Source: Squalus acanthias
Lineage: Eukaryota
DNA: 64,000 bases
Assembly: GCA_030390025.1 (NCBI GenBank)
Contig: CM059432.1
Coordinates: 53,446,001 to 53,510,000 of the forward strand
Direction: 5' to 3'
A model generated the notes under the pieces. That model saw only the letters and a list, made by a program, of their open reading frames with translations. It did not search any database and was not told the origin of the DNA. The position numbers were made by a program, and so were the translations under genes. Below, piece by piece: positions 8,081 to 54,549 of this stretch; positions within the stretch are counted from its first letter, which is position 1, and each line of letters starts with the position of its first letter.

Positions 8081-8879
8081 ATTTTTTAATGGTGTTCACA
8101 TCGTTTGGAGATCACATCAGATAAGTAGGTCAGGTTCTCTCTCTCTCCCCATTGCTGTGAATAGGTGACAGCTGCAAAAGTGGTATGAAAGCTACCATTT
8201 CACAGCTGTTCACTTTCCAATGTCAGAAGCTTGAGCCTTCAGGACTTGGAAGACACTTTTGAGCTTTATGCAGTTTGGAAGTGTTTGGAGTAAACTCTCT
8301 ATTCACTGTCACCTCCTTGGAGCAACCTCTCTCACCATTGACAGATCGCTTCTGTCATCTCAACTTCAGCTGCCATCTATTGCAGCAACATCAGTGCCCT
8401 TGAAAAAATCTCACCTTGGTCCTCTGAATCCCTCCACGATCAGCCCCAGCACCAACATCACCAGGCACACCAACATCATCAACAACAATACCAACCTTTT
8501 CCGCAATTACCTGATACAGCACAGGACACAGGGCATCAGGACCCGACAACATTGCTGCCTGGGAGGCCAGCGATGGCATCACCATGGCCAGATTTAATTC
8601 ACTTGCCGCTGTACACCCTGGCTGCCACATGATGCACCAGGTTGACACCACCCCACACCAGCACCATAAAGAATTCCTACAATATCCAAGCCATTCATTT
8701 CACACTCATCACAACTGGGGGGAGGGGGGGGGGGAATTATGTCTCAACATTCACTGGAACTAACTAAGACATTTCCAAAGGTGAGCACAGATCTATCCCA
8801 TAAGGTAAAGTGTGGAAAAGATAGATTTCAATGTTTGACAACACATTAACAGAAACTTCACATGAACATTGGATCAACC

Positions 8880-24392: not shown

Positions 24393-26358
24393 GTGGAGGG
24401 AGCAAGAGCAAATAAGGAAGAGCTCTTTCCTTTCTCAGGGAGGAAAAAGCCTCCACAACAGACCAAAGCTGTGTGGCTGCAAGTGGCACAGGAGATGAAT
24501 GCGATATCAATGTGCAGCAGAACCTGGCTGCAGTGCAGAAGGAGGTTTCATGACCTTCTCCGCACAGGAAAAGTGAGTATTCCATCCCCATGACCCTCAA
24601 TCTGATCCCCATCGCCTCTCATCACCAGCACTCTGCTTTGTCAACCTCCTCCTCCACATCCCACTTCACCCTTACATCCCTGCACCCTTACCCATTCCCT
24701 CTCTCTGTATGTTCACATTCAATTAACTATTCGACTATGCAGCCCTCAAACTCCCTATCACTGTGATGCTATGACAACAACTTACAACACACAGGGAGGG
24801 CCCTTGGACTTGGCACCTCACTCCATCTTTGTGTCCTTCTAAGCATCCATGCTATGGATTCTCTACACTCACTCCTTCATTCTCACTCAAACTCCACTTG
24901 TGTACCTCATTGCAGGAAAGGAGAGCCCACAATAAGAGGGAGAGGGTGAGGACAGGAGGAGGGCTACCCTCAATAGCCTAGCTCACCGCTGCAGAGGAGG
25001 CGGCCCTGGAGATCGTGGGAGTGGAGGAGGATGCGCAAGTGGGGGACGGACAGACGGGCGCATCAGAGCAAGCTGGTGACAGAATAGTTTTTCATCTCTC
25101 TCATTGACATTGCATCAGTGACTGATATTGATTCTGACGCTCTAACAGATTGACTTATGATCATCTGCACAATTCAATGTGCATGCAACTTTTATTTCAC
25201 ATGTCTAACTCTTTCGTTTACTCCCCCACAGGACCATCGACAGCCCCCCTCCCCACTGTCCAGGAGGAACAGCCTGAGCGCCCAGACTCCTCAGAGGAAG
25301 CTGCAACCTCTGAGGGAGCAGTATCAGCAGAATTCAGTGCACCCAGCACAAGTGCAGACACTCACACCTCGGTGGGACCTTCGGGACATGGAGTAAAGTT
25401 GTCACCTGGTGTATCACTGCTCACAAGTGAGCATCAGCAGATGGTGCAGACAGGCACAGCAGTGGAGAGTCCTCGTCGGAGGCCACAGGACTCTCCCAGC
25501 TCGGCTCCGCTGCATGTTGACCCTGTGCCTCCGGGTCCATCCAGAAGGAGAGCAGTGCTCGAACTCCAGGAACAGGTGCAGGAGTTTCTGGCAGGTTTTG
25601 TCTCAGGGTTGCTGCGAGTGTGGAGCGAATGGAGGAGTCCATCGCGAACATGAGCAGGGCCTTTGTGGAGGCGTTGGCGCATGAACGCATCACCACGGAA
25701 AGGATGGCAACCTTCGTGAAAGGATGGCTACCTCCGTGGTAAGGCTGGCTACCATAGAGGAGAGGATGGCTACGGTAGAGGAGAGGATGGCTACGGTAGA
25801 GGAGAGGATGGCTACGGCCATGGAGGAGCTTAGTCACCAGGGTCTTGAAAACATGGTCATTGTTCAGAATAGAATGATGTCTCTTGAGGAGCGATGGTCA
25901 GCTATTGAGGAGAGAAACCAGAGCTTCATGGAAGTCCTCTGGAGTAGGACCTCCAGTGCAGAAACGGGTCCTCATGGTTCCCCTGAAGTGCAGCGAGGTG
26001 CTGTCAAGTCACTTGCTAGCTCTGAAGTGGGGCTGACCCATGAGAGGGATGTTGGTGGCAGAGAACCAGGAAGTGGGGGCTCCTCTCCAACGCTCACACG
26101 ACCAGGCCACTGCAGAGCCCTCGGTCAGAGCCCCACCAGAGTCCTCACCCAACTGAGATCGGCGTCTCAACCCCTGCACAGCCGCAGGAGCAGCAGACTG
26201 TGGCTGAGCCCTCACAGGCTCGCAACTCCAGAGGACGCCCGCCAAAGGTGCCGAGACAGGAGCAGCAAGAAAGTGAGCAAGGGGCCTCCACATCTGCTGA
26301 AGCCACAGGGGAAGCACCACGTAGGAGCACGCGTAAGAGGAAGATAAAGCACAAGTAG
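24393..26358 (+). pseudogene. Harbinger Myb/SANT(MADF)-like partner gene, exons ~24393-24572, 24916-25075, 25232-26358
   Basis: WLQVA...WLQCRRRFHDL trihelix motif, canonical GT-AG sites and ERMATVE heptad repeats; contains a stop and frameshifts. Confidence 0.75.
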
Positions 26359-26599: not shown

Positions 26600-27864
26600 A
26601 TTGGGCAGGCTAAGCAAATTTGGCCAAGATGAGTGCGTCCCTTATATCCTTGATCCTTGGAGAAGTCAATGTGCTCGCGTGCTACTGCCGCTGGTTGATG
26701 CGCCTCCGCAAGCTGTTCGTTGTCGCTCTCCTCCTCCTCCTCCTCCTCATCTGAGGAGGCTATGCGATGAGCCACTTGTACCTCAGGCATCTGCAAGCCA
26801 TGATGCTGTGCCATTTTGTGAAGTGCACAGCAGACCACGACGATTCTGGAGACCTTGGCTGCTGAGTACTGCAGGGCTCCACCTGATCTATCAAGGCATC
26901 TGAATCGCATCTTCAGCAAGCCGATGGTTTATTCGATTATGGGTCTTTTGGAAATGTGGCTGGCGTTGTAGCGCTCCTCAGCTTCGTTGGATGGGCTCCT
27001 CAACGGCGTCATTAGCCACGTCTTCAGGGGCTAGCCCTTGTCTCCAAGTAGCCATCCGAAAAGCTGGTCTGGCAGACTGAAGAGCGGAGGCACACTAGAC
27101 TGCCGCAGGATGAAGGAGTCATGGCAACTGCCAGGGTACTTGGCGCAAACATGCAAAATTTCCTTCTTGTGGTCGCACACCAGCTGCACGTTGAGGGAGT
27201 GGAAGCCCTTGCGGTTGACAAAAATACCTGGATTGTGATGGGGTGCCTTAAGGGCCACATGTGTGCAGTCAATGATGCCCTGAACCCTTGGAAAGCCTGC
27301 CAGATTAGCAAATCCAATCGCACGTGCGGTTACACTTGCTTGATCCTTGGAGAAGTTAATGTAATTGTGCGCGATGGCAAAGAGGGCATCGGTTACCTGC
27401 GTGATACAAGTGTGTGCGGCCACCTGGGAGTCGCTGCTGATGTCTGCTGTTGTTCCCTGGGATGAGCCTGAAGCAAAAAAGTTGAGTGCGGTGGTGACTT
27501 TGACGGCCACTAGTAAGGGGTGTCCACCCGCTCCTCTGGGCTCCAGGTCTTGCTGCAGCATTGCGCAGATGTCAGCCATTACCTCTCGCGAAAGTCTGAG
27601 CCTCCTTTGGCACTGCTGCTCAGTCATGTTGAGATAGCTCATCCTCTGTTTGTAAAGCCTGTTTTGGGGGTATCTCCTGCGGCGACGTGCTTCCATGTGC
27701 TGGCACCTTCTGGCCTATGCAGCTTCAGGTGGGTGAGCAGCAGCTTGGCGCTCCTATTGTTGCTCCTGCTGTTGGTGCTGCTGTTGTTAAGGGTTCTGCT
27801 GCTGCCGCGTCTGGTCTTCGTCCGAATCTGATGTCCAGGAGGAAAGGAAATAAATGGTTCCCAT
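26600..27864 (-). pseudogene. Harbinger transposase, disrupted
   Basis: [18 protein letters not shown] and LLGDKG followed by a stop; frameshifts present. Confidence 0.85.
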
Positions 27865-33577: not shown

Positions 33578-33875
33578 ACAACAACAACAACAACTTGTAT
33601 TTATACAGCACCTTTAATGTTGTAAAACGTCCCAAGGCGCTGCACAGGAGTGTTATAAGACAAAAAATTTTACACCGAGCCACACAAGGAGAAATTAGGG
33701 TAGGTGACCAAAAGCTTGGTCAAAGAGGTAGGTTTTAAGGAGCGTCTTAAAGGAGGAAAGAGAGGTAGTGAGGCGGAGAGGTTTAGGCAGGGAATTCCAG
33801 AGCTTAGGGCCGAGGCAACAGAAGGCACGGCCACCAATGGTTGAGCGATTATAATCAGGGATGCTCAAGAGGGCA
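33578..33875 (-). mobile_element. L2 LINE 3' end, target of the provirus
   Basis: (CAA)n tail on the + strand. The sequence continues seamlessly at 46699 (ATGCTCAAGAGGGCA|GAATTAGAGG). Confidence 0.8.
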
Positions 33876-35583
33876 TGTAAGGGATTCCCCTGACCCTGCG
33901 TGTCTCGTAGCCTGTGAGATTCACGCGGCTCTGTGCAGCCTGTATGTCAGTGCGGGTCTAGGCCTGGTTGCCTGTTCTGGTCTCCAGCCAGTCTGGGAAC
34001 ACTAGACACACCTGTGAGTGGTTCGAATCACTCTCCCTTACGGTTCTAGACACTGGACTTAGATGCGAGAGCAGTAATGGAGATAAAACTCATGTAGACT
34101 TGGTTTGAATGGTACGAAATGGAAAATCTTTATTGCATGATACTTAAAATTATGAAATACATGTCATAAGCACAGATTAATGACAGTACAATCTTACAAA
34201 CGGTTATATAATCGATCTTAGGGAAACGAGGAACGAACGGCACAACGTAAATAGGGGCACACATTACAAATATCCTTAATCTTTAAACCCTCCCCTATCA
34301 ATATCTATCCTAAACTAGCTTCGTAGGATCTCGAGACTCATGCTCACCACTCGTGATAACTCGGAGAAATTCCGAATAGCTGATCGGATGTTTTTCACCG
34401 CAGCACCCACGTGTCGGTCAGGAGATCTCCTGGTCCCACTTGTTTACTTGCTTCTGCTGCTCCGGCTAGTAGGCTGGACCGTCTGCTGTGGTGAAGACCT
34501 CTGTTGGTGGGTTTCACAGTTTAGTCTTGGAGCACCGTTGTCAATATCATTGATACGATGTGTTTTCCACGTTCCAACCTCCTTAGAAGTTTAAAGAGGA
34601 AAACTTCCTGGCGAGAAAACTTGGCTGATCGACCTACAGGCGCGGTCGGGATTTACTGACCGTGGCGATGGATATGGTCTTCTTCTCTTCTCCTCTCATC
34701 TCATCTCATCTCGGGCCTTTGGTTCCGCTGCCAGTTACCAACATAGGTCTTCGTTACGCGACACGAGGTAGATCCGTACGGATCAGAAAGTTCAACAGTC
34801 TTTTCAGAAGAGGCAACAGGCACGCAGAAACCCAACTACGAGTACACAGGAGCAGCCACGAGGTTACGAATCGACCAGATAAAACACAGGAGCAAGCGAG
34901 CGAACGCAGGAGCACGAACAAGAGCACGAGGCCAGAGGCAAGAGACAAGAGAGCGAATGGACGGTTCGGGGCCTGCAATTATAGTGCAAAAATCTTCCGT
35001 TTCCCGCCCAACTATAATGTCCATTCTTTTGTTTAGGGTTTGGCGCCCAAATGTCTTGTATGGGTGATCTCCGTTCTTAATGGGTTTCGGGCTACTCATG
35101 AATGTTTGAGTACCTGTTAATACTTCTCCCATTGTTAAATCGGTCGGTGTTCTCCCTGGAGGGGTTTGGGGCTTCCAAGTGTCCTGTATAACTACCTGCT
35201 AACGGCTCTCTCATCGTAGAGTCGTTGGGAGTTTACATATTAATGTCCTTTGGATGGGCCCTTGATTACTCGGTACAATGGCTTTCCTTTGTACCTGGGA
35301 GACCGATTCCAGTATCTATGTTTATACTGTAAACCCATAATGTCTCGTGTATTATCTTCACTGTGCTGAATCGTTATCGATCTTGCACAAATGTTTAATG
35401 GAACGCCATCTTGTCTGCCTGTTGAAAAGTCTAGAATGTTCTGTCACGAGGTGCGGCGGCCATTTTACAGGCTGCTTGTGTCCAATTTAAACCTGCCAGC
35501 ATTCTGCTGAAATAAAAGCTGTTTGAACGAAACTTTGTGTTTTCTCCTTATTAATCAAATCGCGATATATTGCGAATTCTACA
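33876..35583 (-). repeat. 3' LTR
   Basis: Direct repeat of 44987-46694 at offset 11111; three transitions found by eye. Confidence 0.97.
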
Positions 35584-35595
35584 GTCCCTCCTGTT
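35584..35595 (-). promoter_or_regulatory. Polypurine tract
   Basis: Minus strand AACAGGAGGGAC immediately before the 3' LTR TGTAG. Confidence 0.7.
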
Positions 35596-36009
35596 GATGC
35601 GAATAACTCCGCTTATCGTATCAAAAATCACAGTGGTGAGCAATCTTATCTCGATTTCACTCCGAATCCAGTAAATTAATCCCATAAATTTTAACTTAAC
35701 TAGGGTCTCTGTGTCGTCCTTATTTCCCAAGAAAATCACATTTTATATCACCGTAGGCATCATTTGCCCTTAAACTTACACCACTTGTTTTCCTTCCCGG
35801 CGTAACCAGGCCGATACCTCACGCATCACCTGTATATTTGTCTTTTATTCAGGGAAAGGAAAAAAAAACAAAACCCAAAACCAAACAATCAACACCATCA
35901 CCAAAATAAACAAATCCCAACTCTTAAACATGTCGAGTTTCCAACGTATTTACAATGAGTACAAACTTCCGCGGCGCACGCGGCGAGCGGGAGTGACGCC
36001 ATTTTCCGA

Positions 36010-38361
36010 TTACACGGTGCTCTCATCGTGCACGCGCACGTAACGTTCTCGCCACTCTCCCGTGTTTTCATGCTTGGTGAGGCACTTGTCTCTTTTACAA
36101 TGTATGACCAATAGGTACACTACAATAAACACTTGACAGACGACTAAAATGTGGGAGGCTATTCTGATCCATGAAGGCACTTCAATATTGGTGAACAGAT
36201 TCCACCACGGTGGAACCACTATGTCCAAAATGTCTGTTCCTATCTCGACAGTTTTCTGCTCTAACGTATAAAAATGTTTCTGTGATACCGCGACGGCTTT
36301 CAGAAGTTTGGTTAAATGCTCAGGGAGAGGGGGAATGAGGTATCCAAAATGTGCGACAAATCGCTGCAAGTCGGTGAAATTCTCTTTTACTGTGAGATGA
36401 ACAGTGGATGGTTCAGGGATTGGGATAATTCGCTGTTGTGCTACTTGAACTTCAGCCCTGGGTTTAAAACAGAAACTGCTGTCACTCACCGGACACCGGC
36501 TACGGTTTCCATGCTGGTAGTGTTGCGCTGCAGTGGTAACACAATATGTTCCACCCCCGATGTATGCTACCTGCGGAGGCACATGATCTTGTGCCATTGC
36601 CTCCATGGTGCAATTCATGGACTTGGCGCCAGCCGTTCTGAACCCGCACTGTGGTGTTAAAAAGGCATTCAAGTGCTGGGGGCACAGTATTATGTGTGCT
36701 CCCCTGCCACGACAACCAGAGAGATCTGTACCTGTCATCGTTTGCTCCCAGCGGATGACGTAAGGTGGAACCGCTGCATAACGAATGTGGGCTCCCCCCT
36801 GAATGACACCGATGTTCTCTACCCGATACACCGGGGCGGGCTTTGCTGTGTTGCCCAAAACCGGCATGCGTAATACTATTCCCATAATAGTATGGTTTGA
36901 ACGTCCGCAGTCCACGGGGACTGGGTAAGCTTCTGAAGCTAGCCTGAGCTGGCACGGACTTAATGCGTTCTGAAAAGGGTGGAGCGCCCGTAGGTGTTTG
37001 TTACTTATCCAGGACGGAACCAAACCTTGTTTTAAATCCTCCAAATTACTGCGGCCCTCGCCCAGTAACCACGCCCCGTAAAGCACGCACACCTCGTTCT
37101 GCGCAGCTTGATCGGATGCATTCCGATCTTCCCTGATCAGGGCATTTACCGTACGCGCATGTTTCTCCAGCTCTGCTATAATTTCCTTTAAATGGAGAGT
37201 CATGGCTTGGTCCTCGTGTAGACCTGACCCTACCACTTTATTCTCATCTGTTAGAATGTCTTTTAACTGGGTTTTTAAACCATTAATCTGGGTCTGCAGC
37301 TCCACACTGTCTAGAGCGTTGACCACAGATGTCCCTGTGTTAAAAGCAGTGAACGCATCGTTCACCAAACCCCTTCTTTGCCTCCCTACTTGATCCAAAA
37401 CTTCCTGCGGTGTGGTGTACAAACTTGCCTTATCAATTTCTGCAAAATCAAACTCGTAAAATTGTCTGAACATCTTGGTCAACAGGACCTGATACAACTG
37501 TTCCGTCTTTTTGGGGCACCACTCTGGTAACCGTACCTCAGTGAGATTTAAAATCACCGAGGCCACCGCGTAATGTACCCCCTGAAATAGTATCTGGTCT
37601 GTGGGGACCAGTACCAAACCGTTCCCGGGTCCCTTACTAGTTTTAGGGCACCCTTCTTCCTCAGCTAGAACCACCGGAATCGTGGGCGGGGCTTTGCGTG
37701 GGCGCGTAATGAGTTCAGTGGCATTTACTGGGATCGGGGAGAATGGGGCTCCGCACCCCCTGGTGCTCGCATCCCACCTCATCCCCTGTCCGTTATCCTG
37801 CCACTGATTAATAAAAAATATGGAGATGCCTTTGGGGCAAACGTACTTTGACCCCCACATACATACATAAATCCCCTCATCCGGTTCCCACCATTTGTCC
37901 CAACAGACTTTCACTTGTCCGTCTGTCCCCGTAATTGTCCGATGGGTATTATTACCCAGTCGTTCCCACTCGACCGAAGAGTTTCTCATAGTTTTGCTCA
38001 GCTTTCGCAGCCACCACCATCGGCTCAATGGGACATCCCCACTACAGGTCAAACAAATCCGTTTGCCGACGGTGACGCTGATCCTGGGTGCGATGATCCG
38101 TACTTTGGGGCACATTAAAGAAGTCTCTTTGTAGGCGAACCCCGATGTGCTGGAATACTCCGTTGAGTTCGTTCCCAGCCATCCTGGCCACCTTCCCTTG
38201 TGGAAATAGGTGCTGGTCCCCTCTGCCTTCCGTCTTCCGGTCCCATCCACCGCGATGGGGGCCGTGTCCCCGGAACATCCGAACACCACGACATCCTTGG
38301 TGTGGCCTCGATAGGCCAATCCACATCCGATTGCCACGAGCAATACTAGAATTCGTTCCAT
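36010..38361 (-). CDS. env: Envelope glycoprotein (783 aa): signal peptide, Ig-like domain, furin site, fusion peptide/heptad repeat, Cys-rich F1-like ectodomain, TM
   Basis: MERILVLLVAIGCGLA signal; RQRR|GLVNDAFTAF cleavage site (37372-37383); heptad repeat; C-terminal TM ILVVCQVFIVVYLLVI; intact ORF. Confidence 0.9.
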   Translation of the reverse strand: MERILVLLVAIGCGLAYRGHTKDVVVFGCSGDTAPIAVDGTGRRKAEGTSTYFHKGRWPGWLGTNSTEYSSTSGFAYKETSLMCPKVRIIAPRISVTVGKRICLTCSGDVPLSRWWWLRKLSKTMRNSSVEWERLGNNTHRTITGTDGQVKVCWDKWWEPDEGIYVCMWGSKYVCPKGISIFFINQWQDNGQGMRWDASTRGCGAPFSPIPVNATELITRPRKAPPTIPVVLAEEEGCPKTSKGPGNGLVLVPTDQILFQGVHYAVASVILNLTEVRLPEWCPKKTEQLYQVLLTKMFRQFYEFDFAEIDKASLYTTPQEVLDQVGRQRRGLVNDAFTAFNTGTSVVNALDSVELQTQINGLKTQLKDILTDENKVVGSGLHEDQAMTLHLKEIIAELEKHARTVNALIREDRNASDQAAQNEVCVLYGAWLLGEGRSNLEDLKQGLVPSWISNKHLRALHPFQNALSPCQLRLASEAYPVPVDCGRSNHTIMGIVLRMPVLGNTAKPAPVYRVENIGVIQGGAHIRYAAVPPYVIRWEQTMTGTDLSGCRGRGAHIILCPQHLNAFLTPQCGFRTAGAKSMNCTMEAMAQDHVPPQVAYIGGGTYCVTTAAQHYQHGNRSRCPVSDSSFCFKPRAEVQVAQQRIIPIPEPSTVHLTVKENFTDLQRFVAHFGYLIPPLPEHLTKLLKAVAVSQKHFYTLEQKTVEIGTDILDIVVPPWWNLFTNIEVPSWIRIASHILVVCQVFIVVYLLVIHCKRDKCLTKHENTGEWRERYVRVHDESTV

Positions 38362-38374
38362 CCTTCCTTGGTTC

Positions 38375-38394
38375 CTGTGATCAGATAGAATGAG
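38375..38394 (-). promoter_or_regulatory. Putative env splice acceptor
   Basis: Minus strand CTCATTCTATCTGATCACAG|G, 13 nt upstream of the signal-peptide ATG. Confidence 0.6.
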
Positions 38395-38647
38395 GTAGCC
38401 AGCCTCGCAAAAGTCTCTGGCTTTTGTGAAGGGTGAGCGGGTCCCCTGACCTCGCCTCACGTAAACTTCAACGTTTGCTGAATAGACTTCCTCTAAACCT
38501 AGCCTTAAAACTCCCATCATTTTATCGTTTTCTGTTAAAAACACTACAAACTTAGCCTTATTAAAACTACAAACTTAACCTTGAACTATAAACTTAAAAC
38601 CTTAACCTAATAACTTTACAGTGCCGCCCGTTCTCAGGGCGGCCCCT

Positions 38648-41600
38648 TTAAATTCTGAGAAGGCTGCTGCGAGCTCTTCCCGACGGTGGGAGGGCACTGA
38701 CCCTTCCCTCTGATCTGCCGCAGCCTGTTGCTGCGCTGACCCTTTCCTCTGATCTGCCGCAGCCTGTTACTGCTGCGATGTGGCCTGTCTCTACCCGGGT
38801 TATCTTAACCTGAATTTTACGCCTTGGGGCTGTCTGGGGACATGACCACATCCTCCTGGGCTGGGGTTCTCTACTAGACCTACGGGGAGTTGCTATGGGC
38901 GGGGGTTCCGTGACGGACGGACCGGGTTCCGAGACCTCCAACGGGATGACCTGGGGTTCCATCACAGTCGCCGGCTCCGCCTCCGCTGACTCCGCCTCCC
39001 TAACCTCGGGGCTGGTAGTTCGTGGCTCCGCCCTGCTCGGCCCAGCAGGCGGCCCTTCACTCGTGATCTCTGCCTCCCCTGAGGACTGGACGTTCAAAGC
39101 GGGCGGCCACATCTCTGGGAACCACATTGGTACTCTCTGTGCTCCTATAGCGGCTGGCCCTGCCTCCTCTAGCTCCTCCCTCCTGTCCTCGGGACCTGCA
39201 GCTTGTGTGTCCACCCCGTGTGGATCTCTACCTATCGGCCCCATTCCCCCCAGACCGTTCCTCAGGAACCACCCGTCATCATCACTATGCTCATCTGCAC
39301 TATCCTCAACTGACCAGGGTACCCTGGGTTCTTCGTCATCTAACCCCCAACTCCAGAAAAACGCTGCATGATCGTCCGGGATGTCCCTTCCCCTGATGCA
39401 AGCTGCTACGCCTGCCTGTGTGCCTTGTGGTCCTACCTGGGGCTGTGTTTTCCCATTGGCGGGATTTACCCCTGTAGTTTTCCCCTGCGCACCCGGCTGG
39501 TACAGTTTGCATTGGTTTATGTGGAACCACTTAGTGCGCCGAGGCACTTTTACGGCGTAAACCATGGGACTCGCCTTGTCTACAATGTTGTAGGGTCCCA
39601 TATACAGTGGTTCCAGACTCCCTACTCTGGCGTAGTTTCTGACCATGACCTGGTCTCCTACTTCCCACTCCCGCGTTTTGCGGGGTTCCAGCAACAAGCG
39701 ATTGCCCTGATGCTGCCTTCCCATGTTCCCAGCCGCCTGCTCATAAACTTGCTTCAGGCGCTCCAAGAGATTTTGGGCGAACTTGTCCCTGCTGATCTCT
39801 TGAAGCTGACCCTCAGTGAGCACCGGGGCTAGCACATGGGTGGGGGTTCGCATGAGCCTGCCGGTCATTACCTCGTGCGGGGAGTACCCCGTACTTTTTG
39901 ACTGACTGGCCCGGACCCCCATGAGGACTAAAGGCAGAACTTCCGCCCATTTTTGGGGCGAGTTCCTAGTCTCTTTCCTCAATTTCTCCTTCAGGGTCCG
40001 GTTCATACGTTCAACAATCCCGGATGACTGGGGATTGTGCGCTACGTGCCACTTCCCTTCAATGCCCAAAAGCATGAGGGTGTTCTGCATCACCTGGCCG
40101 GTGAAATGACTCCCTTGGTCTGACTCCACGAAACGGGGGAGTCCCCACCGCGAGAACACTTCCCGGACCAAGATTTTTGCTGTACCCAGTGCCGTAGCGG
40201 TTCGACAAGGGAAGGCTTCCACCCACTTGGAAAACACATCTACCAGGACGAGGCAGTATTTATAACCTCCCTGGGTGGTGGGCAGGGGTCCTATATAGTC
40301 GATCTGTATCGACTGCCATGGTCCCTCTACCCTTCTTACGTGTCCCATGGGCACCTTCCTTTTCTGGGGGTCTGGGTTGTTTGCAGCGCACACAAGACAG
40401 TTTGCACAGAACTCGCGGACTTGTTCCCTGAGCCCCGGCCACCATCCCGCTTGCTCTACCCGTTGCCAGGCAACCTCGGGCCCGGGGTGCCCTGCCCCTG
40501 GTCCCTCGTGAGCCAACTGGAGGAATTCCCTCCTGTGCTGCTGCGGCACAACCCACTGCTCCCCGCGGAACAGCATGCCTTCCTTAACTGAGAGGGTTGC
40601 CGTACTGTACGGACCTTCTACCTGCCTCCCCTCAGCAATCGTTTTTAGGACTGCTTTTAGGGCGGGATCCTGGGCTTGGACGGTCTTAAGGTCTAGGGGC
40701 AATGCTACCCTGGTGTTCCCGGTATTCCCGTCCCCGCCTCGGACCGCTGCTATGGGTCCGGTCCTATAGGGGTTCCAGAAAGTGCCGTCGCGGGCACCCT
40801 CCCTGGCTAGCGCATCCGCCTGCCGGTTGCCCTCCCCACGGGGCTCTGTGGAGGAGTGAGCTTTCACCTTATGGATGAAAATCTCCCCTTCCTCCCCTAC
40901 TGCTGCTGCTAAGATCTTTTCCAGCAAGGGCTTCACCGTTAAAGGTCGCCCGTCCGCGGAGGTGTATCCGCGGCGGGACCAAATGGCCAGGTATTCCGTA
41001 CACGAATTGCAGGTGAACATACTGTCCGAGCAAATCGTGTATGGGGTTGGGAAAATGTCTGGGTGGGTCACCACGTACACCACGGCAGACAGCTCAGCCT
41101 GCTGCGCGCTCATGGTGCTAGGGAGCTTGATCGCCAGGGCAAGGTCTGCCGCAGGGTCATAAACTCCACACCCTGTGAGTCGCTCGCCAGCAGACACTGT
41201 GCTAGACCCATCAACATAAATCTCGCGCCCAGTGGGATGTATCCCGGCCCGTAAACCTATGTTGACGTCCCACACCCCTTCCACCGAACACCGGTGGGCT
41301 GTACCGGGGTATACCAAATTGGCCGCAAGCCTGGGCTCGCAAAGACCTTTTACTCTAAGATCCAACTGGGAGAGAAGAAGGGTCCAACGCGCAATGCGTG
41401 CGCTGCTTACGGTCCCGTCTTTAATCCTCCCATCCAGAAGCATCTTAGTTGGTGTGTGATGTGTGAGGAGAGTGATGGGAGAGAGCCCTGTGAAGATCGC
41501 TGATCTTTTCACAGCCCAATGCGTGGCTAAAAGGTGCCTTTCGCAATTGGAGAAACTTCTCTCCACATCCGTTAATACCCTGGATGAATAGACAACCGGC

Positions 41601-43171
41601 CTCAGCTTGCCGTGACGCTCTTGGAGCAGCACGGCGCTTAAGCTGTCTCCGCTGGCAGCTACCTCCAGGAAAAACTCCTTCCCCCCATCTATGGCCCCTA
41701 AGGCTGGCACGGTCTGCAGATCCCTTTTTAACTTCTCGAAGGCTGCTTGGCAGCCCTCGTCCCAAAGCCACTCCGCCCCCTTATGGAGGAGTCGGAGGAG
41801 CGGCGCCGCTGTGGCCGCATAATCTTCGATAAAATCCCTGCAGTAACCGGTCAGTCCCAAGAAGGACCTCACACCCCTTACGTTGTTGGGAATCGGTAAT
41901 TCTTGCACCGACTCCCTCCTTGCTTTGTCTATGGCTCTTTCCCCAGCGCGTAGGGTCAGTCCCAGGAATTTTACTTCCTGCTGACCGATACGTGCTTTCT
42001 TTGGGTTTACTTTGAAACCCTTTCTCGCTAACAGCTCCAATAACTCGTCCAGTAGTGGTCCATGCTCCTCCCTTGAGTCCGTAAATAGGAGCAAATCATC
42101 CACATACTGTACTATCTGATTGGGCTGACTAAACTCCTTTAAACTTCCTGCCATACACTGATGAAAAATACTGGGGCTATTGTGGAAACCCTGTGGCAAA
42201 CAGTTCCACGTGTACTGTTGCCCTTTAAACGTAAAGGCAAACTTGTACTGGTCCTCTCGCCGCAGCGGGATGGACCAAAAACCGTTCGAGATATCCAGCA
42301 CCGTGAACGTGGTCGCGGACGCTGGGATGCTCCCTATTAGGTCAGCAACTGCTGCTACTGTGGGCGCGCAGGCGGGAATGTTACTGTTAAGGACTCTGTA
42401 GTCCACCGTGGCTCTCCACGAATTATCCGGCTTCCTAACCGGCCATAATGGGGAGTTCACGTGTGTGGCTATCGGCCTCAACACGCCCTGCTGCACCAAG
42501 GAAGACATTGCTGTCTCCATATCGGGTTCGGCTTCTTTGGGGAAGTTATACTGCTTTTGGGGTCGGGTCATGGGGTCCCCATCTACGCTGACCTCAAACC
42601 CGACCACCCTCCCACAATCGTGCTTGTGGGTTGCAAACGCGTGCATATTATCTGACACGTACGTTTGCATGTCCGTTGGGACATCTGCGACCATAAGCCT
42701 GAGGTCGTAGCCTCCGGATGGCTGTACGGTACACAGGACCCCTGTTTCTTCCTCCCCCGGAATCACCATTACCTCGCCTTTTTCACCCTTAGCCCCCCAG
42801 AGACAGTGATTTCTGAGGTCCACGAGGATCCCGTGTCCCGCTAGGAGATCGGACCCGAGAATACCTCTTCCACCCCCCTTTTGCCATGCCATCAGTATAC
42901 ACTTCCACTTAAGGCGAAGTGTTCCTAAACGAATGGATAGCGGGAGGGAAAACGTGCCAGCCTGTTCTTTCCCTGTGAACCCTGCCAGCGTGAATGGGAC
43001 CTTGGTAGATAGCGGCGAGTCAAAAGGGTTATCCGTATGGATTATGGTGCAAGAAGCTCCCGTGTCCAACAAATAACTGCCCTTCTGTTTCTCTACCTCC
43101 ATCTCCACCACAGGTCGCCTCCACGCATCATAGCTGAGCGGACACAGGTAGACGGGCTGTGCTGGTTCTAG
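38648..43171 (-). CDS. pol: Pol: protease, RT, tether RNase H, RNase H, integrase (HHCC, DDE, GPY/F) and C-terminal extension
   Basis: LLDTGAS; LPQG...YVDD; YVDGS/AEL/SDS/GNRQAD; H-H-C-C zinc finger, IDYIG, SDQG, VERMN, GPY. Intact frame continuous with the gag stop. Confidence 0.95.
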   Translation of the reverse strand, partial: LEPAQPVYLCPLSYDAWRRPVVEMEVEKQKGSYLLDTGASCTIIHTDNPFDSPLSTKVPFTLAGFTGKEQAGTFSLPLSIRLGTLRLKWKCILMAWQKGGGRGILGSDLLAGHGILVDLRNHCLWGAKGEKGEVMVIPGEEETGVLCTVQPSGGYDLRLMVADVPTDMQTYVSDNMHAFATHKHDCGRVVGFEVSVDGDPMTRPQKQYNFPKEAEPDMETAMSSLVQQGVLRPIATHVNSPLWPVRKPDNSWRATVDYRVLNSNIPACAPTVAAVADLIGSIPASATTFTVLDISNGFWSIPLRREDQYKFAFTFKGQQYTWNCLPQGFHNSPSIFHQCMAGSLKEFSQPNQIVQYVDDLLLFTDSREEHGPLLDELLELLARKGFKVNPKKARIGQQEVKFLGLTLRAGERAIDKARRESVQELPIPNNVRGVRSFLGLTGYCRDFIEDYAATAAPLLRLLHKGAEWLWDEGCQAAFEKLKRDLQTVPALGAIDGGKEFFLEVAASGDSLSAVLLQERHGKLRPVVYSSRVLTDVERSFSNCERHLLATHWAVKRSAIFTGLSPITLLTHHTPTKMLLDGRIKDGTVSSARIARWTLLLSQLDLRVKGLCEPRLAANLVYPGTAHRCSVEGVWDVNIGLRAGIHPTGREIYVDGSSTVSAGERLTGCGVYDPAADLALAIKLPSTMSAQQAELSAVVYVVTHPDIFPTPYTICSDSMFTCNSCTEYLAIWSRRGYTSADGRPLTVKPLLEKILAAAVGEEGEIFIHKVKAHSSTEPRGEGNRQADALAREGARDGTFWNPYRTGPIAAVRGGDGNTGNTRVALPLDLKTVQAQDPALKAVLKTIAEGRQVEGPYSTATLSVKEGMLFRGEQWVVPQQHRREFLQLAHEGPGAGHPGPEVAWQRVEQAGWWPGLREQVREFCANCLVCAANNPDPQKRKVPMGHVRRVEGPWQSIQIDYIGPLPTTQGGYKYCLVLVDVFSKWVEAFPCRTATALGTAKILVREVFSRWGLPRFVESDQGSHFTGQVMQNTLMLLGIEGKWHVAHNPQSSGIVERMNRTLKEKLRKETRNSPQKWAEVLPLVLMGVRASQSKSTGYSPHEVMTGRLMRTPTHVLAPVLTEGQLQEISRDKFAQNLLERLKQVYEQAAGNMGRQHQGNRLLLEPRKTREWEVGDQVMVRNYARVGSLEPLYMGPYNIVDKASPMVYAVKVPRRTKWFHINQCKLYQPGAQGKTTGVNPANGKTQPQVGPQGTQAGVAACIRGRDIPDDHAAFFWSWGLDDEEPRVPWSVEDSADEHSDDDGWFLRNGLGGMGPIGRDPHGVDTQAAGPEDRREELEEAGPAAIGAQRVPMWFPEMWPPALNVQSSGEAEITSEGPPAGPSRAEPRTTSPEVREAESAEAEPATVMEPQVIPLEVSEPGPSVTEPPPIATPRRSSREPQPRRMWSCPQTAPRRKIQVKITRVETGHIAAVTGCGRSEERVSAATGCGRSEGRVSALPPSGRARSSLLRI

Positions 43172-44982
43172 TCATGGGGCACTATTAGACGGTCCTGCGG
43201 CACCTACGGGGCCGGTTGCGACCGCCACCTGTCCACGCGCATTCAAAACCATCTTGCGCATGGCTCCTAACACTGCTTCGAGGTCGTCGGGAGGGGTGGG
43301 TGCCTTTGCTTCCTTAGGCGGGACAGGCGCCTGGGCTCGGACCGCGGGATTTTTATCCTTGGAATCCTTCCAAGGGTTCCTGCAGTGCTTGCGCCAGTGC
43401 CCTGTCTTCCCACACCCGTAACAGGCATTACTTGCCTGTGGGGCGCGATTACCCTCCTGATGCCACTCTCTTTGAGCCGGGGCTGCGGGTCGTACCTCAT
43501 GTACTCTTCCCTTAAAGGGACGTGTCGTCATACCCCTTATGTTACGATAACCTAACGTGAGTCGATTCAAGACCGACTCTTCCGTAAGGTTGAGGTCATT
43601 GGGATCGAACCAGGCTTTTGCCTGCTCTCTAACGGCTGGTAAACTGTTGGCTATTATGCACCTAAGCCAATGAATTAGAGCGGCGCCTTCCACATCTTCG
43701 CGCTCGGGCGCACCTAGACAGCTGCGCTCATATACTGGCCACAGCCTGTCGGCAAAAACCTTCGGGGGTTCTCCCTCCATCTGCACTGTCTGTCCCACTC
43801 TAGCAAACGGACCTCCGTCGTTCGCCCCCACTACTTCGAGGACCTCATTTTTCAATTCCTCATAACTTTTGTTTCCCCTCTTGCTCTCGCCTGAGAGACA
43901 CTGAAGGACCGAGCTATCTAACGAGAACAGCAGCATTTTTGCTGTCTCCCCATCATCGCAGCCGTTAATGGCTGCGGCTTGCTCAACTTCCCTGAAATGT
44001 ACGGAAGGGTCGTCTATCTCGGTCAGCTTCCTTACGTGGTTTATCATAGCTCTCAGCTGATGTGAACTGTGAGGCAACACCAGCTGTCCGAGGAGATCCC
44101 CCGGTTCTTCCCCACCGTTTCTGCTTGGGCCCCTTTTAATCCCCGTTACTGGATACAACGATCCCTTTTCTACCTCCTTTTTAATGGGCTCTTTTGTTTC
44201 TTCCGTTGCTTCCTCCCTAACCCAGGTTTCTGAATAGCTGGGTGGCGCGGAGGGCGCAGTGGCTACTACTTCTTCTGCTTTACTTGGTGGGGAATTTCTA
44301 AATCTCTCATTTACTAGCGGCTGGTGCGCCGACGGATTGATAAGGCACACCATGCCGTTCGCATTATTCACGGCCTTTTTGAGGCTCTCTATCTCCCTTT
44401 GGCAGGCGCTATGGTCGGCTCCCTGAAACTTATCCTCAAGGGCCAACTTATACGCCGACCTAACCCCCATTAAGCTCTCTTCTTGAGTTCTTATCTGGGC
44501 AGCTTGGCGGTTACATCTTTCCTTTAACCTACTCTCATTCAATTTTGCTTCAGTGACCTGGCACTCGAGATACTCTATCCTTGTTTTAAGGTAACTGGAG
44601 ACTTCCTGGCTTTCCTGGTGTAACTCATTTAAATTCTTAATGAGCACCTCCCCTCAGAAACCTTCTCCTCCATTTCTCCCTCTAAATGGCTGACACGAGC
44701 TGTTAGCGCTGTAATGGTCTGGTTTGAAATCTGAACCTGCCTTTTGTAGCACATAAGCCAGACTGCTTTCTCAACTGCCTTTTTATGTTCCTTACTATCA
44801 GTCCACCTTTCAGCTGCCTCTAGTGGGCTCTTATCCGCTAACAATTCACTTATCCACTTCTTAGTTAGATTAACCTTTCCAAACACATAATCCGCTATCT
44901 TTTCCTGCATAACATTTCGTACAGTCATTCCAAAATCTAACACACTACCCTCTCGCTGCCAGTGTCCTGCCGCGGTCGCCAT
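43172..44982 (-). CDS. gag: Gag with N-terminal coiled coil, PSAPPSY late domain and one CCHC zinc knuckle; single 1-nt frameshift at ~44650
   Basis: ORFs 44629-44982 and 43172-44647; CYGCGKTGHWRKHC at 43382-43423; homology to the gag at 13665. Confidence 0.9.
44964..44981 (-). promoter_or_regulatory. Primer-binding site, tRNA-Arg(TCG) type
   Basis: TGGCGACCGCGGCAGGAC is complementary to the vertebrate tRNA-Arg(TCG) 3' end GTCCTGCCGCGGTCG-CCA, as I recall that sequence. Confidence 0.85.
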
Positions 44983-44986
44983 TTTC

Positions 44987-46694
44987 TGTAAGGGATTCCC
45001 CTGACCCTGCGTGTCTCGTAGCCTGTGAGATTCACGCGGCTCTGTGCAGCCTGTATGTCAGTGCGGGTCTAGGCCTGGTTGCCTGTTCTGGTCTCCAGCC
45101 AGTCTGGGAACACTAGACACACCTGTGAGTGGTTCGAATCACTCTCCCTTACGGTTCTAGACACTGGACTTAGATGCGAGAGCAGTAATGGAGATAAAAC
45201 TCATGTAGACTTGGTTTGAATGGTACGAAATGGAAAATCTTTATTGCATGATACTTAAAATTATGAAATACATGTCATAAGCACAGATTAATGACAGTAC
45301 AATCTTACAAACGGTTATATAATCGATCTTAGGGAAACGAGGAACGAACGGCACAACGTAAATAGGGGCACACATTACAAATATCCTTAATCTTTAAACC
45401 CTCCCCTATCAATATCTATCCTAAACTAGCTTCGTAGGATCTCGAGACTCATGCTCACCACTCGTGATAACTCGGAGAAATTCCGAATAGCTGATCGGAT
45501 GTTTTTCACCGCAGCACCCACGTGTCGGTCAGGAGATCTCCTGGTCCCACTTGTTTACTTGCTTCTGCTGCTCCGGCTAGTAGGCTGGACCGTCTGCTGT
45601 GGTGAAGACCTCTGTTGGTGGGTTTCACAGTTTAGTCTTGGAGCACCGTTGTCAATATCATTGATACGATGTGTTTTCCACGTTCCAACCTCCTTAGAAG
45701 TTTAAAGAGGAAAACTTCCTGGCGAGAAAACTTGGCTGATCGACCTACAGGCGCGGTCGGGATTTACTGACCGTGGCGATGGATATGGTCTTCTTCTCTT
45801 CTCCTCTCATCTCATCTCATCTCGGGCCTTTGGTTCCGCTGCCAGTTACCAACATAGGTCTTCGTTACGCGACACGAGGTAGATCCGTACGGATCAGAAA
45901 GTTCAACAGTCTTTTCAGAAGAGGCAACAGGCACGCAGAAACCCAACTACGAGTACACAGGAGCAGCTACGAGGTTACGAATCGACCGGATAAAACACAG
46001 GAGCAAGCGAGCGAACGCAGGAGCACGAACAAGAGCACGAGGCCAGAGGCAAGAGACAAGAGAGCGAATGGACGGTTCGGGGCCTGCAATTATAGTGCAA
46101 AAATCTTCCGTTTCCCGCCCAACTATAATGTCCATTCTTTTGTTTAGGGTTTGGCGCCCAAATGTCTTGTATGGGTGATCTCCGTTCTTAATGGGTTTCG
46201 GGCTACTCATGAATGTTTGAGTACCTGTTAATACTTCTCCCATTGTTAAATCGGTCGGTGTTCTCCCTGGAGGGGTTTGGGGCTTCCAAGTGTCCTGTAT
46301 AACTACCTGCTAACGGCTCTCTCATCGTAGAGTCGTTGGGAGTTTACATATTAATGTCCTTTGGATGGGCCCTTGATTACTCGGTACAATGGCTTTCCTT
46401 TGTACCTGGGAGACCGATTCCAGTATCTATGTTTATACTGTAAACCCATAATGTCTCGTGTATTATCCTCACTGTGCTGAATCGTTATCGATCTTGCACA
46501 AATGTTTAATGGAACGCCATCTTGTCTGCCTGTTGAAAAGTCTAGAATGTTCTGTCACGAGGTGCGGCGGCCATTTTACAGGCTGCTTGTGTCCAATTTA
46601 AACCTGCCAGCATTCTGCTGAAATAAAAGCTGTTTGAACGAAACTTTGTGTTTTCTCCTTATTAATCAAATCGCGATATATTGCGAATTCTACA
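44987..46694 (-). repeat. 5' LTR (TATA ~46094-46089, splice donor 45458, AATAAA 45245-45240)
   Basis: Direct repeat of 33876-35583; TGTAG...TTACA termini on the minus strand. Confidence 0.97.
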
Positions 46695-47235
46695 GGCAGA
46701 ATTAGAGGAGCGCAGATATCTCGGGGGATTGTGGGGCTGAAGGAGATTAAAGAGATAGGAAGGGGCGAGGCCATGGAGGGATTTGAAAACAAGGATGAGA
46801 ATTTTGAAATCGAGGCGCTACTTAACCGGGAGCCAATGTAGGTCAGCGAGCACAGGAGTGATGGGTGAACGGGACTTGGTGTGAGTTAGGACATGGGCAG
46901 CCAAGTTTTGGATGACCTCAAGTTTATGTAGGGTAGAATGTGAGAGGCCAGCCAGGAGTGCATTGAAATAGTCAAGTCTAGAGGTAACAAAGGCATGGAT
47001 GAGGGTTTCAGCAGCGGATGAGCTGAGGCAAGGGCGGAGATGGGCGATGTTACGGTGGTGGAAATAGGCGGTCTTTGTTATGCTGCGGATATCTGGTCGG
47101 TAGCTCATCTCAGGGTTAAATATGACACCAAGTTTGTGAACAGTATGGTTCAGCCTCAGACAGATGTTAGGGAGAGGGATGGAGTCAGAGGCTAGGGAAT
47201 GGAGTTTGTGCCGGGGATCAAAAACAATAGCTTTG

Positions 47236-48810: not shown

Positions 48811-50373
48811 CTTCTTAGGCAGTCCTTCGGAACCGAGGATGACTTGCTTCCACATTAAAAATGAGTTCTCAGGTGACTGATGAGCCCAATGCGGGACCTA
48901 CAGGCTCTGTCACAGGTGGGGCAGACGGTGGTTGAAGGGGCGGGTGGGTGGGGTGCTTGGGTTGACGTGCGCTTCCTCCGCTGTTTGCGCTTGGCTTCTG
49001 CTTGCTCCCGGCGAAGAGACTCGAGGTATTCAGCGCCTTCCCGGATGCTTCTCCTCCACTTTGTGCGGTCTTGGGCCAGGGATTCCCAGGTCTCGGTGGG
49101 GATGTTGCACTTTTTCAAGGAGTCTTTGAGGGTGTCCTTGAAGCGTTTCCTCTGCCATCCTGGGGCTCTCTTGCCGTGTCGGAGGTCCGAGTAGAGCGCT
49201 TGTTCTGCGAGTCTTATATCGGGCATGCGGACGATGTGGCCCATCCATCGGAGCTGATCGAGCGTGGTCAAAGCTTCGATGCTGGGGATGTTGGCCTGAG
49301 CGAGATCACTGATGTTGGTGCGCCTATCTTGCCAATGGATTTGCAGGATCTTGCGGAGGCAGCATTGGTGGTACCTCTCCAGTGCTTTGAGGTGCCTGTT
49401 GTACTTGGTCCATGTCTCTGAGGCATACAGGAGGGCGGGTTTCACTACTGCTCTGTAGACCATGAGCTTGGTGCTGGGTTTGAGGTCCTGGTCTTCAAAC
49501 ATTCTCTTCCTCAGGTGACCGAAGGCTGCACTGGCAAACTGGAGGAGGTGTTGGACTTCGTCATCAACATCTGCCCTTGTTGACAGTAGGCTTCCGAGGT
49601 ATGGAAAGTGGTCCACGTTGTCCAAGGCCTTGTCGTGGATTTTGATAATCGGGGGGCAGTGCTGTGTGGCGGGGGCAGGTTGGTAGAGGACCTTTGTCTT
49701 ACGGATGTTTAGTGTAAGGCCCATGCTCTCGTACGCTTCGGTGAAGGTGTTGACGATGGTTTGGATTTCGACCTCCGAGTGTGCGCAGACGCAAGCATCG
49801 TCTGCATACTGTAATTCGACGACAGAGGATGGGACGACCTTGGATCTGGACTGGAAGCGACGGAGGTTGAACAGTTTCCCGTTTGTTCTGTAAATTAGCT
49901 CCACTCCAGTGGGGAGCTTACTGAGGGTGAGATGGAGCATTGCAGCAAGGAAGATCGAAAAGAGCGTTGGTGCGATGACACAGCCTTGCGTGAATTGGGT
50001 CTGTGGTGGAACTGTTGGTCAGGATCATGGCTTGCATGTTGTCGTGAAGCAGGCGGAGGATGGTGACAAACTTTTGAGGGCAGCTGAATTTGCGGAGGAC
50101 ACTCCATAATCCCTCACGGTTGACAGTGTCGAAGGCCTTTGTGAGATCAAAGAAGGCCATGTACAGCGGTTGGTGCTGTTCCCTGCATTTCTCTTGTAAT
50201 TGACGCGCAATGAAGATCATGCCCATTGTGCCCCTTAGTGGGCGGAATCCGCATTGCGACTCTGCGAGGAGCTCTTCAGCCACTGGGAGAAGGCGACTGA
50301 GGAGGATTCTTGCGATGACTTTCGATGTGGTAGACAGCAGGGAAACTCCTCTGTAATTACCGCAATTGGACTT
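48811..50373 (-). mobile_element. 5'-truncated RTE-clade LINE inserted in L2
   Basis: ESQCGFRP, FFDLTKAFDTV, LQYADD, QLRWMGH and a C-terminal C2H2 motif (CPTC...HLRTH); L2 sequence resumes on both sides. Confidence 0.9.
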
Positions 50374-52809: not shown

Positions 52810-53384
52810 ATACTTAAGGAGGCACTGATTTAGCAGGGAGTTAGTATGACAGCTCTGTCACCTGCTGGAAGAGGACATGTAGTCATGCTCCCAAGCTCTT
52901 TCAGGGTCAGTTAAAATAATAACGGTACTCAACTTTTTTGCCACTGGAGGTTTTCAGGGGGCCACAGTGACATTGATGCCCTGTTTGACAGGTAGAATGG
53001 CTGTAGCTTTTCAAGGATCCTAGGGAGCATCAAACACATGCTCCTGATTTTTGCCATCTTGCGGATTTGCCCTAGGTGCAGGGTGTAATTGACAATACCC
53101 AGAGACTGATAGCTGGGGAAATGGAGCCTTCTGGAGAGAGAATACCACCATCCACAGTCTGTTCTAACATTTTTCATCTCTTGGCCTCTCTGCTACTCTA
53201 CTTTGTCAGACCCCGTCACAGGATTGATAGAGCACATGGCAGATTCTCTCTTCTTTGAGCAACCTCTTCTGTGAGCTTGTCCATGGAGGCTGTCAAACTC
53301 CATTTCAGCATTCTGAACATTGATGAGAAAACCTAAGACTGGCTACAAGGCCTCCGCTGTAAGGGATTGCACAGCCAATGGCCC

Positions 53385-54549
53385 TGGAGATTGGTGAGCA
53401 AAGTTAAAGCACATGAGATTGGGGGTAATGTGTTGACGTGGATTGAGAACTGGTTGGCACACAGGAAACAAAGAGTAGGAGTAAATGGGTACTTTTCAGA
53501 ATGGCAGGCAGTGACCAGCGGGGTACCGCAGGGTTCGGTGCTGGGACCCCAGCTGTTTACATTATATATTAATGATTTGGACGAAGGGATTAAATGTAAT
53601 ATCTCCAAATTTGCGGATGACACTAAATTGGGAGGCAGTGTGAACAATGAGGAGGATGCTAGGAGGCTACAGAGTGACTTGGACAGGTTGGGTGAATGGG
53701 CAAATCTATGGCAGATGAAGTACAATGTGGATAAATGTGAGGTTATCCACTTTGGTGGTAAAAATAGAGAGGCGGACTATTACCTGAATGGTGGCAGATT
53801 AGGGAAAGGGGAGGTGCAACGAGACCTGGGCGTCATGGTACATCAGTCACTGAAGGTGGGAATGCAAGTGCAGCAGGCAGTCAAGAAAGCAAACGGAATG
53901 ATGGCCTTCATAGCAAGGGGATTTGAGTACTGGAGTAGGGAGGTGATGCTGCAGTTGTACAGGGCCTTGGTGAGGCCACACCTGGAGTATTGTGCGCAGT
54001 TTTGGTCTCCTAACTTAAGGAAGGACATTCTTGCTATTGAGGGAGTGCAGCGAAGGTTCACTAGATTGATTCCTGGGATGGCCGGACTGACATATCAAGA
54101 AAGATTGGGTCAACTGAACTTGTATCCTCTGGAGTTCAGAAGAATGAGGGGGGATCTTATAGAGACATTTAAAATCCTGACTGGTTTAGACAAATTAGAT
54201 GCGGGCAGAATGTTCCCAATGTTAGGGAAAACTAGAACCAGGGGTCACAGTCTAAGGATTAAGGGGAAGCCATTTAAGACTGAGCTGAGGAGGAACTTCT
54301 TCACCCAGAGAGTGGTGAATCTATGGAATTCTCTTCCACAGAAGGTTGTTGAGGCCAGTTCGCTAAATATATTCAAAAGGGAGTTAGATATAACACTCAC
54401 AACTAGGGGGATCAAGGGGTATGGCGAGAAAGCAGGAATGGGGTACTGAGGTAGCATGTTCAGCCATGAACGCATTGAATGGCGGTGCAGGCTCGAAGGA
54501 CCGAATGGTCTACTCCTGTACCTATTTTCTATGTTTCTATGTTTCTATG
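53385..54549 (+). mobile_element. 5'-truncated young CR1 LINE with an open ORF2 C-terminus
   Basis: ORF 53367-54449 (GVPQGSVLGP, KFADDTK) and a (TTTCTATG)n tail. Confidence 0.92.

Follow-up and report, generated by a model that had tools for sequence, protein, structure and literature searches.

A predicted paramyxovirus-F-type (class Ib) envelope fusogen in a recently integrated retrovirus of the shark Squalus acanthias

The window analyzed here, a stretch of 64,000 nucleotides from Squalus acanthias (assembly GCA_030390025.1, contig CM059432.1, positions 53,446,001 to 53,510,000 of the forward strand), holds a provirus with long terminal repeats (LTRs) and an open env gene. We hold with good confidence that its envelope protein (Env) is a predicted fusogen of the paramyxovirus F type (class Ib), encoded by a deep lineage of retroviruses distinct from lokiretroviruses, that it would be cut at the motif RQRR, and that it would likely bind cells through its own N-terminal head, which is probably immunoglobulin (Ig)-like. 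The F fold is predicted to extend from residue 238 to the membrane anchor. Feature coordinates are collected in Table 1.

An AlphaFold2 model of the Env monomer, built from an alignment of 31 sequences, has a predicted local distance difference test score (pLDDT) of 80-94 over most of residues 241-300 and 421-650, and of 86-93 over 241-300. When the PDB was searched with Foldseek, every top row listed was a paramyxovirus or pneumovirus F protein, the best being that of human parainfluenza virus 3 (hPIV3; 1ZTM, E 4.3e-11). Similarly, the top 16 rows of the VIA comparison were F proteins or foamy virus Env, with Z falling from 11.6 to 6.0 before the next, unrelated row at 5.3. Among them were F of Newcastle disease virus (NDV; Z 11.6, root-mean-square deviation (rmsd) 18.5, 374 residues aligned), F of respiratory syncytial virus (RSV; Z 8.8, rmsd 6.0, 283 aligned) and foamy Env (Z 8.4, range 8.2-8.4, rmsd 7.6, 272 aligned); for prefusion forms of RSV, human metapneumovirus (hMPV) and foamy virus the rmsd was about 6 over 280-290 residues. 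Structural matches in BFVD comprised lispivirus G, baculovirus F, and the Envs of walleye epidermal hyperplasia virus 1 (WEHV1; E 2.4e-11) and of walleye dermal sarcoma virus (WDSV; E 1.8e-9), and a protein language-model atlas search of Env returned clusters of Baculo_F (0.92) and Fusion_gly (0.91). An earlier sequence-only reading of this DNA had proposed an F1-type layout and ancestry shared with the fusion proteins of negative-strand RNA viruses, to be abandoned if neither profile nor structural similarity to class I F proteins were found. Structural similarity is present in the monomer model, and the F-like layout and an ancestry shared with paramyxovirus and pneumovirus F are supported by the structural matches and the language-model search.

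The VIA matches span Env residues 243-651 and begin at 243-245, so the fusogen would take in an F2-like segment ahead of the furin site, with the onset of the F fold about 90 residues N-terminal to it. Contribution of the N-terminal subunit to the fusion core is a requirement of class Ib fusogens (PMC11468914). In the predicted model both subunits build a core of this kind, a beta sheet and a helical bundle together with domains I and II, and the cleavage site stands directly before the fusion peptide, followed by heptad repeat A (HRA), heptad repeat B (HRB) and the anchor. The marks of a gamma-type class Ia envelope, namely a short transmembrane (TM) subunit, an immunosuppressive motif and CX6CC, were not found. 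As the sequence-only reading had stated, RQRR is followed in the translation by a membrane-anchored subunit of 453 aa; it is the sole R-X-K/R-R site in Env, and there is one strong anchor (Kyte-Doolittle 2.55 at residue 734). That reading was also right that CX6CC and the immunosuppressive motif are absent, neither being matched in a pattern scan that, by the same method, detected CX6CC in 9 of 14 class I/II orthoretroviral reference genomes. In the genomes with CX6CC, 176-214 aa lie behind the cleavage site, against 453 aa in the shark Env. Its generalization that orthoretroviral TM subunits are much shorter fails for snakehead retrovirus (SnRV), which has ~510 aa behind the aligned cleavage site, and WDSV Env too matches the Env family of the element.

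All the quoted motifs of the cysteine-rich region (YRVENIG, PPYVI, TDLSGC, ILCP, NC, YCVTT and FCF) occur in the Env translation, and the region is modeled as beta structure; seven cysteines between residues 550 and 631 recur in 15-20 relatives out of 17-24, the number aligned varying by column, and Cys282 and Cys425 in 13/14 and 17/19 relatives. The quoted fusion peptide is likewise present, but it is only mildly hydrophobic (19-residue mean <=0.73) and modeled at pLDDT <50. The claimed long heptad repeat is helical, but predicted as two helices, 333-374 and 383-444, rather than one. The verdict that the protein is "not a retroviral TM" held for its F likeness only: it is still a retroviral Env, and F-type Envs have been published for lokiretroviruses and foamy viruses. 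The start codon of env aligns with the N-termini of two relatives (P0004 and P0132).

Residues 18-237 of Env have no counterpart in F. Within this head, residues 88-170 are probably Ig-like, on five weak lines of evidence of which none passes a cut-off. The segment has an Ig-type pattern (B-strand C103, C-strand W115-117 and F-strand DEGIYVC at 161-167), Pfam Ig_3 matches it at E 0.012, below the cut-off, and with the head model of pLDDT 36 as query the Foldseek rows were almost exclusively Ig V-type domains, the best at E 5.5e-3. The atlas search gave weak Ig-like matches (0.84-0.85), the PDB sequence match to JAM-A stood at E 1.3, and one Env relative is named Ig-like by UniRef. When the relatives P0129 and P0108 were searched against the PDB with phmmer, P0129 gave no match and P0108 gave antibody V domains at E 0.05-0.9. 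PDB matches of one head profile (A3) were void, as zinc-finger parts of a chimeric gene model had contaminated it. The provirus has no separate attachment gene, so binding would lie in the head; we regard an attachment role as possible, with a chance slightly short of even. Gamma-type Env, a different fusogen class, is known to carry Ig-like domains for binding (bioRxiv 2024.03.17.585361). SnRV Env, too, opens with a stretch that matches V-set weakly (E 0.084).

A profile built from the core of the Env ectodomain, with the anchor excluded, was searched against 463 open reading frames (ORFs) and their 463 reversals. Its top 19 matches were the Envs of SnRV (E 2.6e-8) and WDSV (E 2.1e-5), plus 17 of foamy type, 14 of them at E <0.01; the best other Env stood at E 0.8 and the best reversal at 0.99, and gamma-, beta-, delta- or lentiviral Env was not picked out among the 463 ORFs. 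Local shuffles gave at most 6.6, 4.4 and 3.8 bits against 28.7, 19.2 and 17.2. Of the 17 foamy-type genomes, one was confirmed by Pfam and eight by the reverse transcriptase (RT) tree, the remainder being assigned by likeness. With hhalign, SnRV Env aligned at probability 95.8 over 350 columns, which brought into register its cleavage site, the CP..GP..G motif that opens F2 and the cysteine of the central helix, and WDSV Env aligned at 96.6 over 297 columns. The reference genomes came from IMG/VR, where L001 was recognized as SnRV and L090 as WDSV from their lengths and gag-pol junctions (10,688 nt with TAGGGC as published, and 12,708 nt with the junction given in PMC13517186). Their matching Envs lie at 6131-9535 (L001, SnRV-type) and 5962-9648 (L090, WDSV-type).

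Each of these viruses resembles the shark element in part. SnRV gives the best Env profile match and shares with the element a gag and a pol that occupy the same frame but are separated by a stop, a single zinc knuckle and the lack of CX6CC. However, the best RT tree does not group the two and Gag is alike only at the knuckle; the gag stop is TGA CTA in the shark element and TAG GGC in SnRV, the shark env starts with a Met and a probable signal peptide of its own, and the shark Env has 783 aa with a 27-aa tail where SnRV Env has ~1,130 aa with a 136-aa tail. The LTR of the shark element is 1.7 kb, and no 3'ORF was seen in the provirus. WDSV shares the profile match, the Foldseek matches to the WDSV and WEHV1 Env models and the lack of CX6CC, but its RT is distant in the tree (36% identity) and its Env, about 1,230 aa, has a long tail. 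Foamy Env (8rm0, 8rm1) has the same predicted core, an N-subunit contributing to the fusion core, and profile similarity in the 17 foamy-type Envs. It differs in its leader peptide and in a binding domain inserted between the subunits, the extra module of the shark Env being N-terminal (PMC11468914). Foamy_virus_ENV matches a foamy-type reference (L043) with 1,538 bits and the shark Env not at all, and the shark Gag has a zinc knuckle and lies in frame with pol.

The lineage was placed by RT trees of 70 rows, or of 45 of those 70 with near-duplicates removed for the approximately unbiased (AU) tests, the mixture-model tree and the envelope mapping; RTs of ERV-L, ERV-S, fish foamy-like and Odin elements were not knowingly among the rows. 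RT identity is 52-54% to frog, coelacanth and further relatives, 43.5% to SnRV (the highest of any exogenous virus tested) and 32-37% to foamy viruses. In the mixture-model tree the element, the frog/coelacanth group and a ratite element part at an open fork near the base, and lie outside foamy viruses, SnRV and orthoretroviruses at only 84/89. The marks of Spumaretrovirinae are absent: the RT falls outside the 100/100 foamy branch, Foamy_virus_ENV is unmatched and the Gag zinc knuckle is present. By sequence, the element is fairly labeled a deep retrovirus of clade-III grade that lies near SnRV and foamy viruses, and RTs of endogenous retroviruses of cartilaginous fish are mostly clade III (PMC11089739). 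Named Env relatives at 54-75% identity come from skate, sawshark and catshark, and those at 28-32% from other sharks. Among the Pol relatives, those of ostrich and kiwi (P0015, P0171) have nearly identical RTs on branches of about 0.01 that branch deeply; this locus is possibly conserved and adopted.

Several results weigh against the reading of Env as an F-type fusogen with an Ig-like head in a deep lineage. The model is a monomer with mean pLDDT 61, a predicted template modeling score (pTM) of 0.44 and a large rmsd to most targets. The Pfam search that the sequence-only reading had proposed went against it, as Fusion_gly and Baculo_F matched neither Env (E up to 1) nor any of the 31 aligned members; a relative outside that alignment (P0135) reached Baculo_F at E 0.001, under the cut-off. 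Neither phmmer nor the Env profile found an F chain among PDB sequences, and a single-protein scan of viral contigs gave no match. The head alone folded at pLDDT 36 with no Foldseek match at E 0.001 or better, its best VIA score (Z 5.3) was to an entry outside the Ig superfamily, and its profile failed to align with the SnRV N-terminus (probability 2.5). Finally, deep RT nodes are weak: a clade with foamy viruses (p 0.283) or with SnRV (p 0.245), the latter grouping being absent from the best RT tree, is neither rejected nor shown.

The F likeness could also reflect a recent capture of an F gene from a negative-strand RNA virus, replacing the retrovirus's own envelope. The top structural matches in both libraries are indeed negative-strand virus proteins, and the paramyxovirus and pneumovirus F proteins (hPIV3 1ZTM, NDV 3MAW, RSV, hMPV) share with Env the order of F2, furin site, fusion peptide, HRA, beta domains, HRB and anchor. 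However, identity to these proteins is 9-16%, against 19-75% to retroviral Envs of sharks and frogs; the shark Env has an extra head and no partner attachment gene, and is encoded in a provirus. The profile relatives are SnRV, WDSV and foamy Env, and library rank reflects which structures have been solved. As the nearest sequence relatives are retroviral Envs, nothing shows capture from a negative-strand virus, and we consider it very unlikely.

Lokiretrovirus was the initial identification of the element, and would be the first in cartilaginous fish. The plan LTR-gag-pol-env, a tether with a second RNase H and an F-like Env with R-X-K/R-R, a published hallmark of the group, are shared (PMC7947760, PMC9040795), and the top named Pol matches, "NYNRIN-like" proteins, come from frogs and coelacanth, hosts that also carry lokiretroviruses. 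Yet the tether and second RNase H are common to all retroviruses, and the shark Env is likened to the lokiretroviral one by description. The identification was dropped on Pol motifs, RT identity, trees and the AU test. Published lokiretroviral Pol has LIYVDD (15 places in the available supplement of PMC7947760) and YVDDLLL in none, and matches P0017, P0020 and P0021, at only 33-35% RT identity to the element. Lokiretroviruses, represented in the trees by P0017, P0020 and P0024 (assigned by motif match to that supplement), form their own RT branch (100/99); three RT trees, one of them by FastTree, place the element outside it, and a joint clade is rejected (AU p 0.005). The shark Pol is shorter and its Env has a 220-aa head, whereas in the two readable lokiretroviral Env N-termini the F2-like motif directly follows the signal peptide and a head is lacking. 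A published screen was positive in 0 of 6 cartilaginous-fish genomes, two of those species carrying relatives of the shark Env (PMC7947760). We thus see very little prospect that the element is a lokiretrovirus.

It is more doubtful still that the host has adopted the open env as a syncytin-like gene and keeps it for a function of its own. The frame is open while gag is broken, and one run covering env, among four, was guessed to be RNA. However, pol is open too, each run holds many family variants, and the LTRs differ at 3 of 1,708 positions (0.18% divergence), which, at assumed rates of 2.2e-9 to 3e-10, would date integration to about 0.4 to 3 My ago. A contig of sequencing run X7 passes from the left flank directly into the far flank with the element absent, though the site lies within a host repeat. 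Least credible is convergence of a coiled coil and a cysteine-rich region, in favor of which Pfam and PDB sequences give no match and long helices inflate structural scores, but the matches span 243-651, beta domains at pLDDT 80-94 included, with an rmsd to prefusion F of about 6 over 280 residues, and a pure coiled coil gets Z <=5 in the same VIA list.

The F-type envelope as such is already known in lokiretroviruses (PMC7947760), foamy viruses (PMC11468914) and errantiviruses, and a bare F-like retroviral Env is not new. The profile matches indicate that it likely extends to SnRV and WDSV, fish retroviruses whose Envs were previously unexplained. Epsilonretrovirus Env has been called distinct or uncharacterized in reviews (PMC3758190, PMC9967133), could not be modeled in bioRxiv 2021.11.05.467493, and for WDSV scored 0 with no class I match in the accessible part of Viro3D. 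In the literature available we did not find an F-type Env reported for a shark lineage that is neither lokiretroviral nor foamy, or for SnRV and WDSV, though earlier work may already state the link for SnRV or for epsilonretrovirus Env. The shark Env would also be a compact, naturally occurring case in which an F core carries its binding module at the N-terminus; PMC11468914 names this arrangement only for the coronavirus spike.

The profile link favors an F-type envelope as ancestral in retroviruses. Tentatively, and giving it somewhat less than an even chance, we propose that class Ib Env was ancestral to all retroviruses and was kept by lokiretroviruses, the shark/frog lineage, foamy viruses, SnRV and the walleye epsilonretroviruses, that the short subunit of the type found in human immunodeficiency virus and murine leukemia virus was a later replacement in one branch, and that the shark Env, a minimal F core with a swappable Ig-like head, is a bridge through which the homology can be seen at the sequence level and the uncharacterized SnRV and WDSV envelopes are explained. 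Mapping envelope type on the RT tree requires two changes, with the lokiretroviral state taken from PMC7947760 and rows with Env of unknown type uncounted; the count gives no direction, but an F-type Env is present on each deep branch for which Env is known. Against ancestry of the F type stand the movement of env between lineages, the weak deep RT nodes and the argument that WDSV Env was a late acquisition (PMC9967133). Wang and Han listed four scenarios for Env origin (PMC7947760) and later preferred independent origins in lokiretroviruses and other retroviruses (PMC9040795). A third deep F-type lineage, together with the link to SnRV, WDSV and foamy viruses, makes the scenario of an ancestral F with later replacement testable.

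By analogy with F and foamy Env, the shark Env would form a trimer, which a furin-like protease would cut into an N-subunit (head, linker and F2-like segment) and the 453-aa F1-like subunit, the two staying joined probably through Cys282-Cys425. The head would bind a cell, a trigger would let HRA extend and the fusion peptide insert, and HRB would fold back into a six-helix bundle. The family probably spread by reinfection, which requires Env: variant sites from four other runs fall at third codon positions in 11 of 15 cases in env and 11 of 16 in pol (p 0.002 and 0.004; 31 coding rows among 40 shown of 811), an excess that suggests such spread. As gag of this copy is broken, it could move only with help from other copies. 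Over positions 36010-38400, 56-79% of sampled 31-mers are present in 20 runs from 9 studies under six organism labels; near-identical env copies thus occur, by sequence match, in several labeled organisms. In the frog Mantella aurantiaca, at least 13 full-length Env relatives of 677 aa (P0147-P0161, cluster of P0143) suggest a young expansion of the Env family there too.

Table 1. Features of the provirus and of its predicted envelope protein, in window coordinates.
Feature	Position	Strand	Remarks
Provirus, LTR type, ~12.8 kb	33876-46694	minus	
5' LTR, 1,708 bp	44987..46694	minus	TG...CA
3' LTR, 1,708 bp	33876..35583	minus	TG...CA
Target-site duplication GGCA, left copy	33872..33875		4 bp
Target-site duplication GGCA, right copy	46695..46698		4 bp
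Primer-binding site	44964..44981	minus	5 nt behind 5' LTR
Polypurine tract	35584..35595	minus	precedes 3' LTR
gag	43172..44982	minus	split over two reading frames near 44630-44655; a single zinc knuckle (weak zf-CCHC, Pfam)
pol, 1,507 codons, open	38648..43171	minus	protease, RT (YVDD), tether, RNase H, integrase, then ~280 extra residues
env, 783 aa, open	36010..38361	minus	Met at 38361; frame open from 38574
Probable signal peptide, aa 1-17	38311..38361	minus	inferred from hydrophobic N-terminus
Probable Ig-like domain, aa 88-170	37852..38100	minus	inside N-terminal head aa 18-205, then Pro/Thr-rich linker
F2-like segment, aa 238-326	37384..37650	minus	long beta strand and helix, part of fusion core
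Furin-type site RQRR, aa 327-330	37372..37383	minus	basic site conserved in relatives
Predicted fusion peptide, aa 331-350	37312..37371	minus	directly after RQRR; mild hydrophobicity
HRA and central helices, aa 351-444	37030..37311	minus	structure model
Cysteine-rich beta domains (F domains I/II), aa 477-651	36409..36933	minus	model, VIA, alignment
HRB, aa 663-715	36217..36375	minus	structure model
Membrane anchor, about aa 730-756	36094..36174	minus	then 27-aa tail to 36013

The gag frame ends in TGA CTA G (43172-43174, minus), in the same frame as pol, and Pol would be made through readthrough of this TGA in a type II context. UGA CUA is the type II (alphavirus-type) context, and the retroviral contexts given in the available part of PMC13517186 are UAG contexts plus UGAAGA, UGACGA and UGAAGU, UGACUA not being among them. 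A search for an unusual RNA fold downstream of the gag stop gave no signal (z 0.19). Within Pol, Pfam places RT_RNaseH at residues 497-602 and RNase_H at 650-793. The C-terminus exceeds that of 11 relatives, which end at about residue 1,200-1,240, by ~280 residues of low-complexity tail (38648-39500, minus) with a short tandem duplication near 38700-38780.

The primer-binding site differs from that of the SnRV reference (L001). It may be of the tRNA-Arg type, the type given for SnRV. At 44964-44982 (minus) the site and the initial ATG of the upstream gag frame overlap, and hardly any leader is left unless translation begins at a later ATG. On the sense strand the LTR carries a 120-codon frame (45947-46309 and 34836-35198, minus) that has no Pfam match, and a TATA-like signal at LTR position 1375 with AATAAA at 1451 puts the length of U3 at ~1.4 kb.

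Elsewhere, the window contains four DDE_Tnp_4 (Harbinger-type) transposase copies (1085-2505, 16028-17422, 27031-27714 and 57168-58409), whose partner frames carry 21-nt repeats (25718-25822 and 59230-59313), and RT fragments of non-LTR elements at 48855-50018 and 53337-54449.

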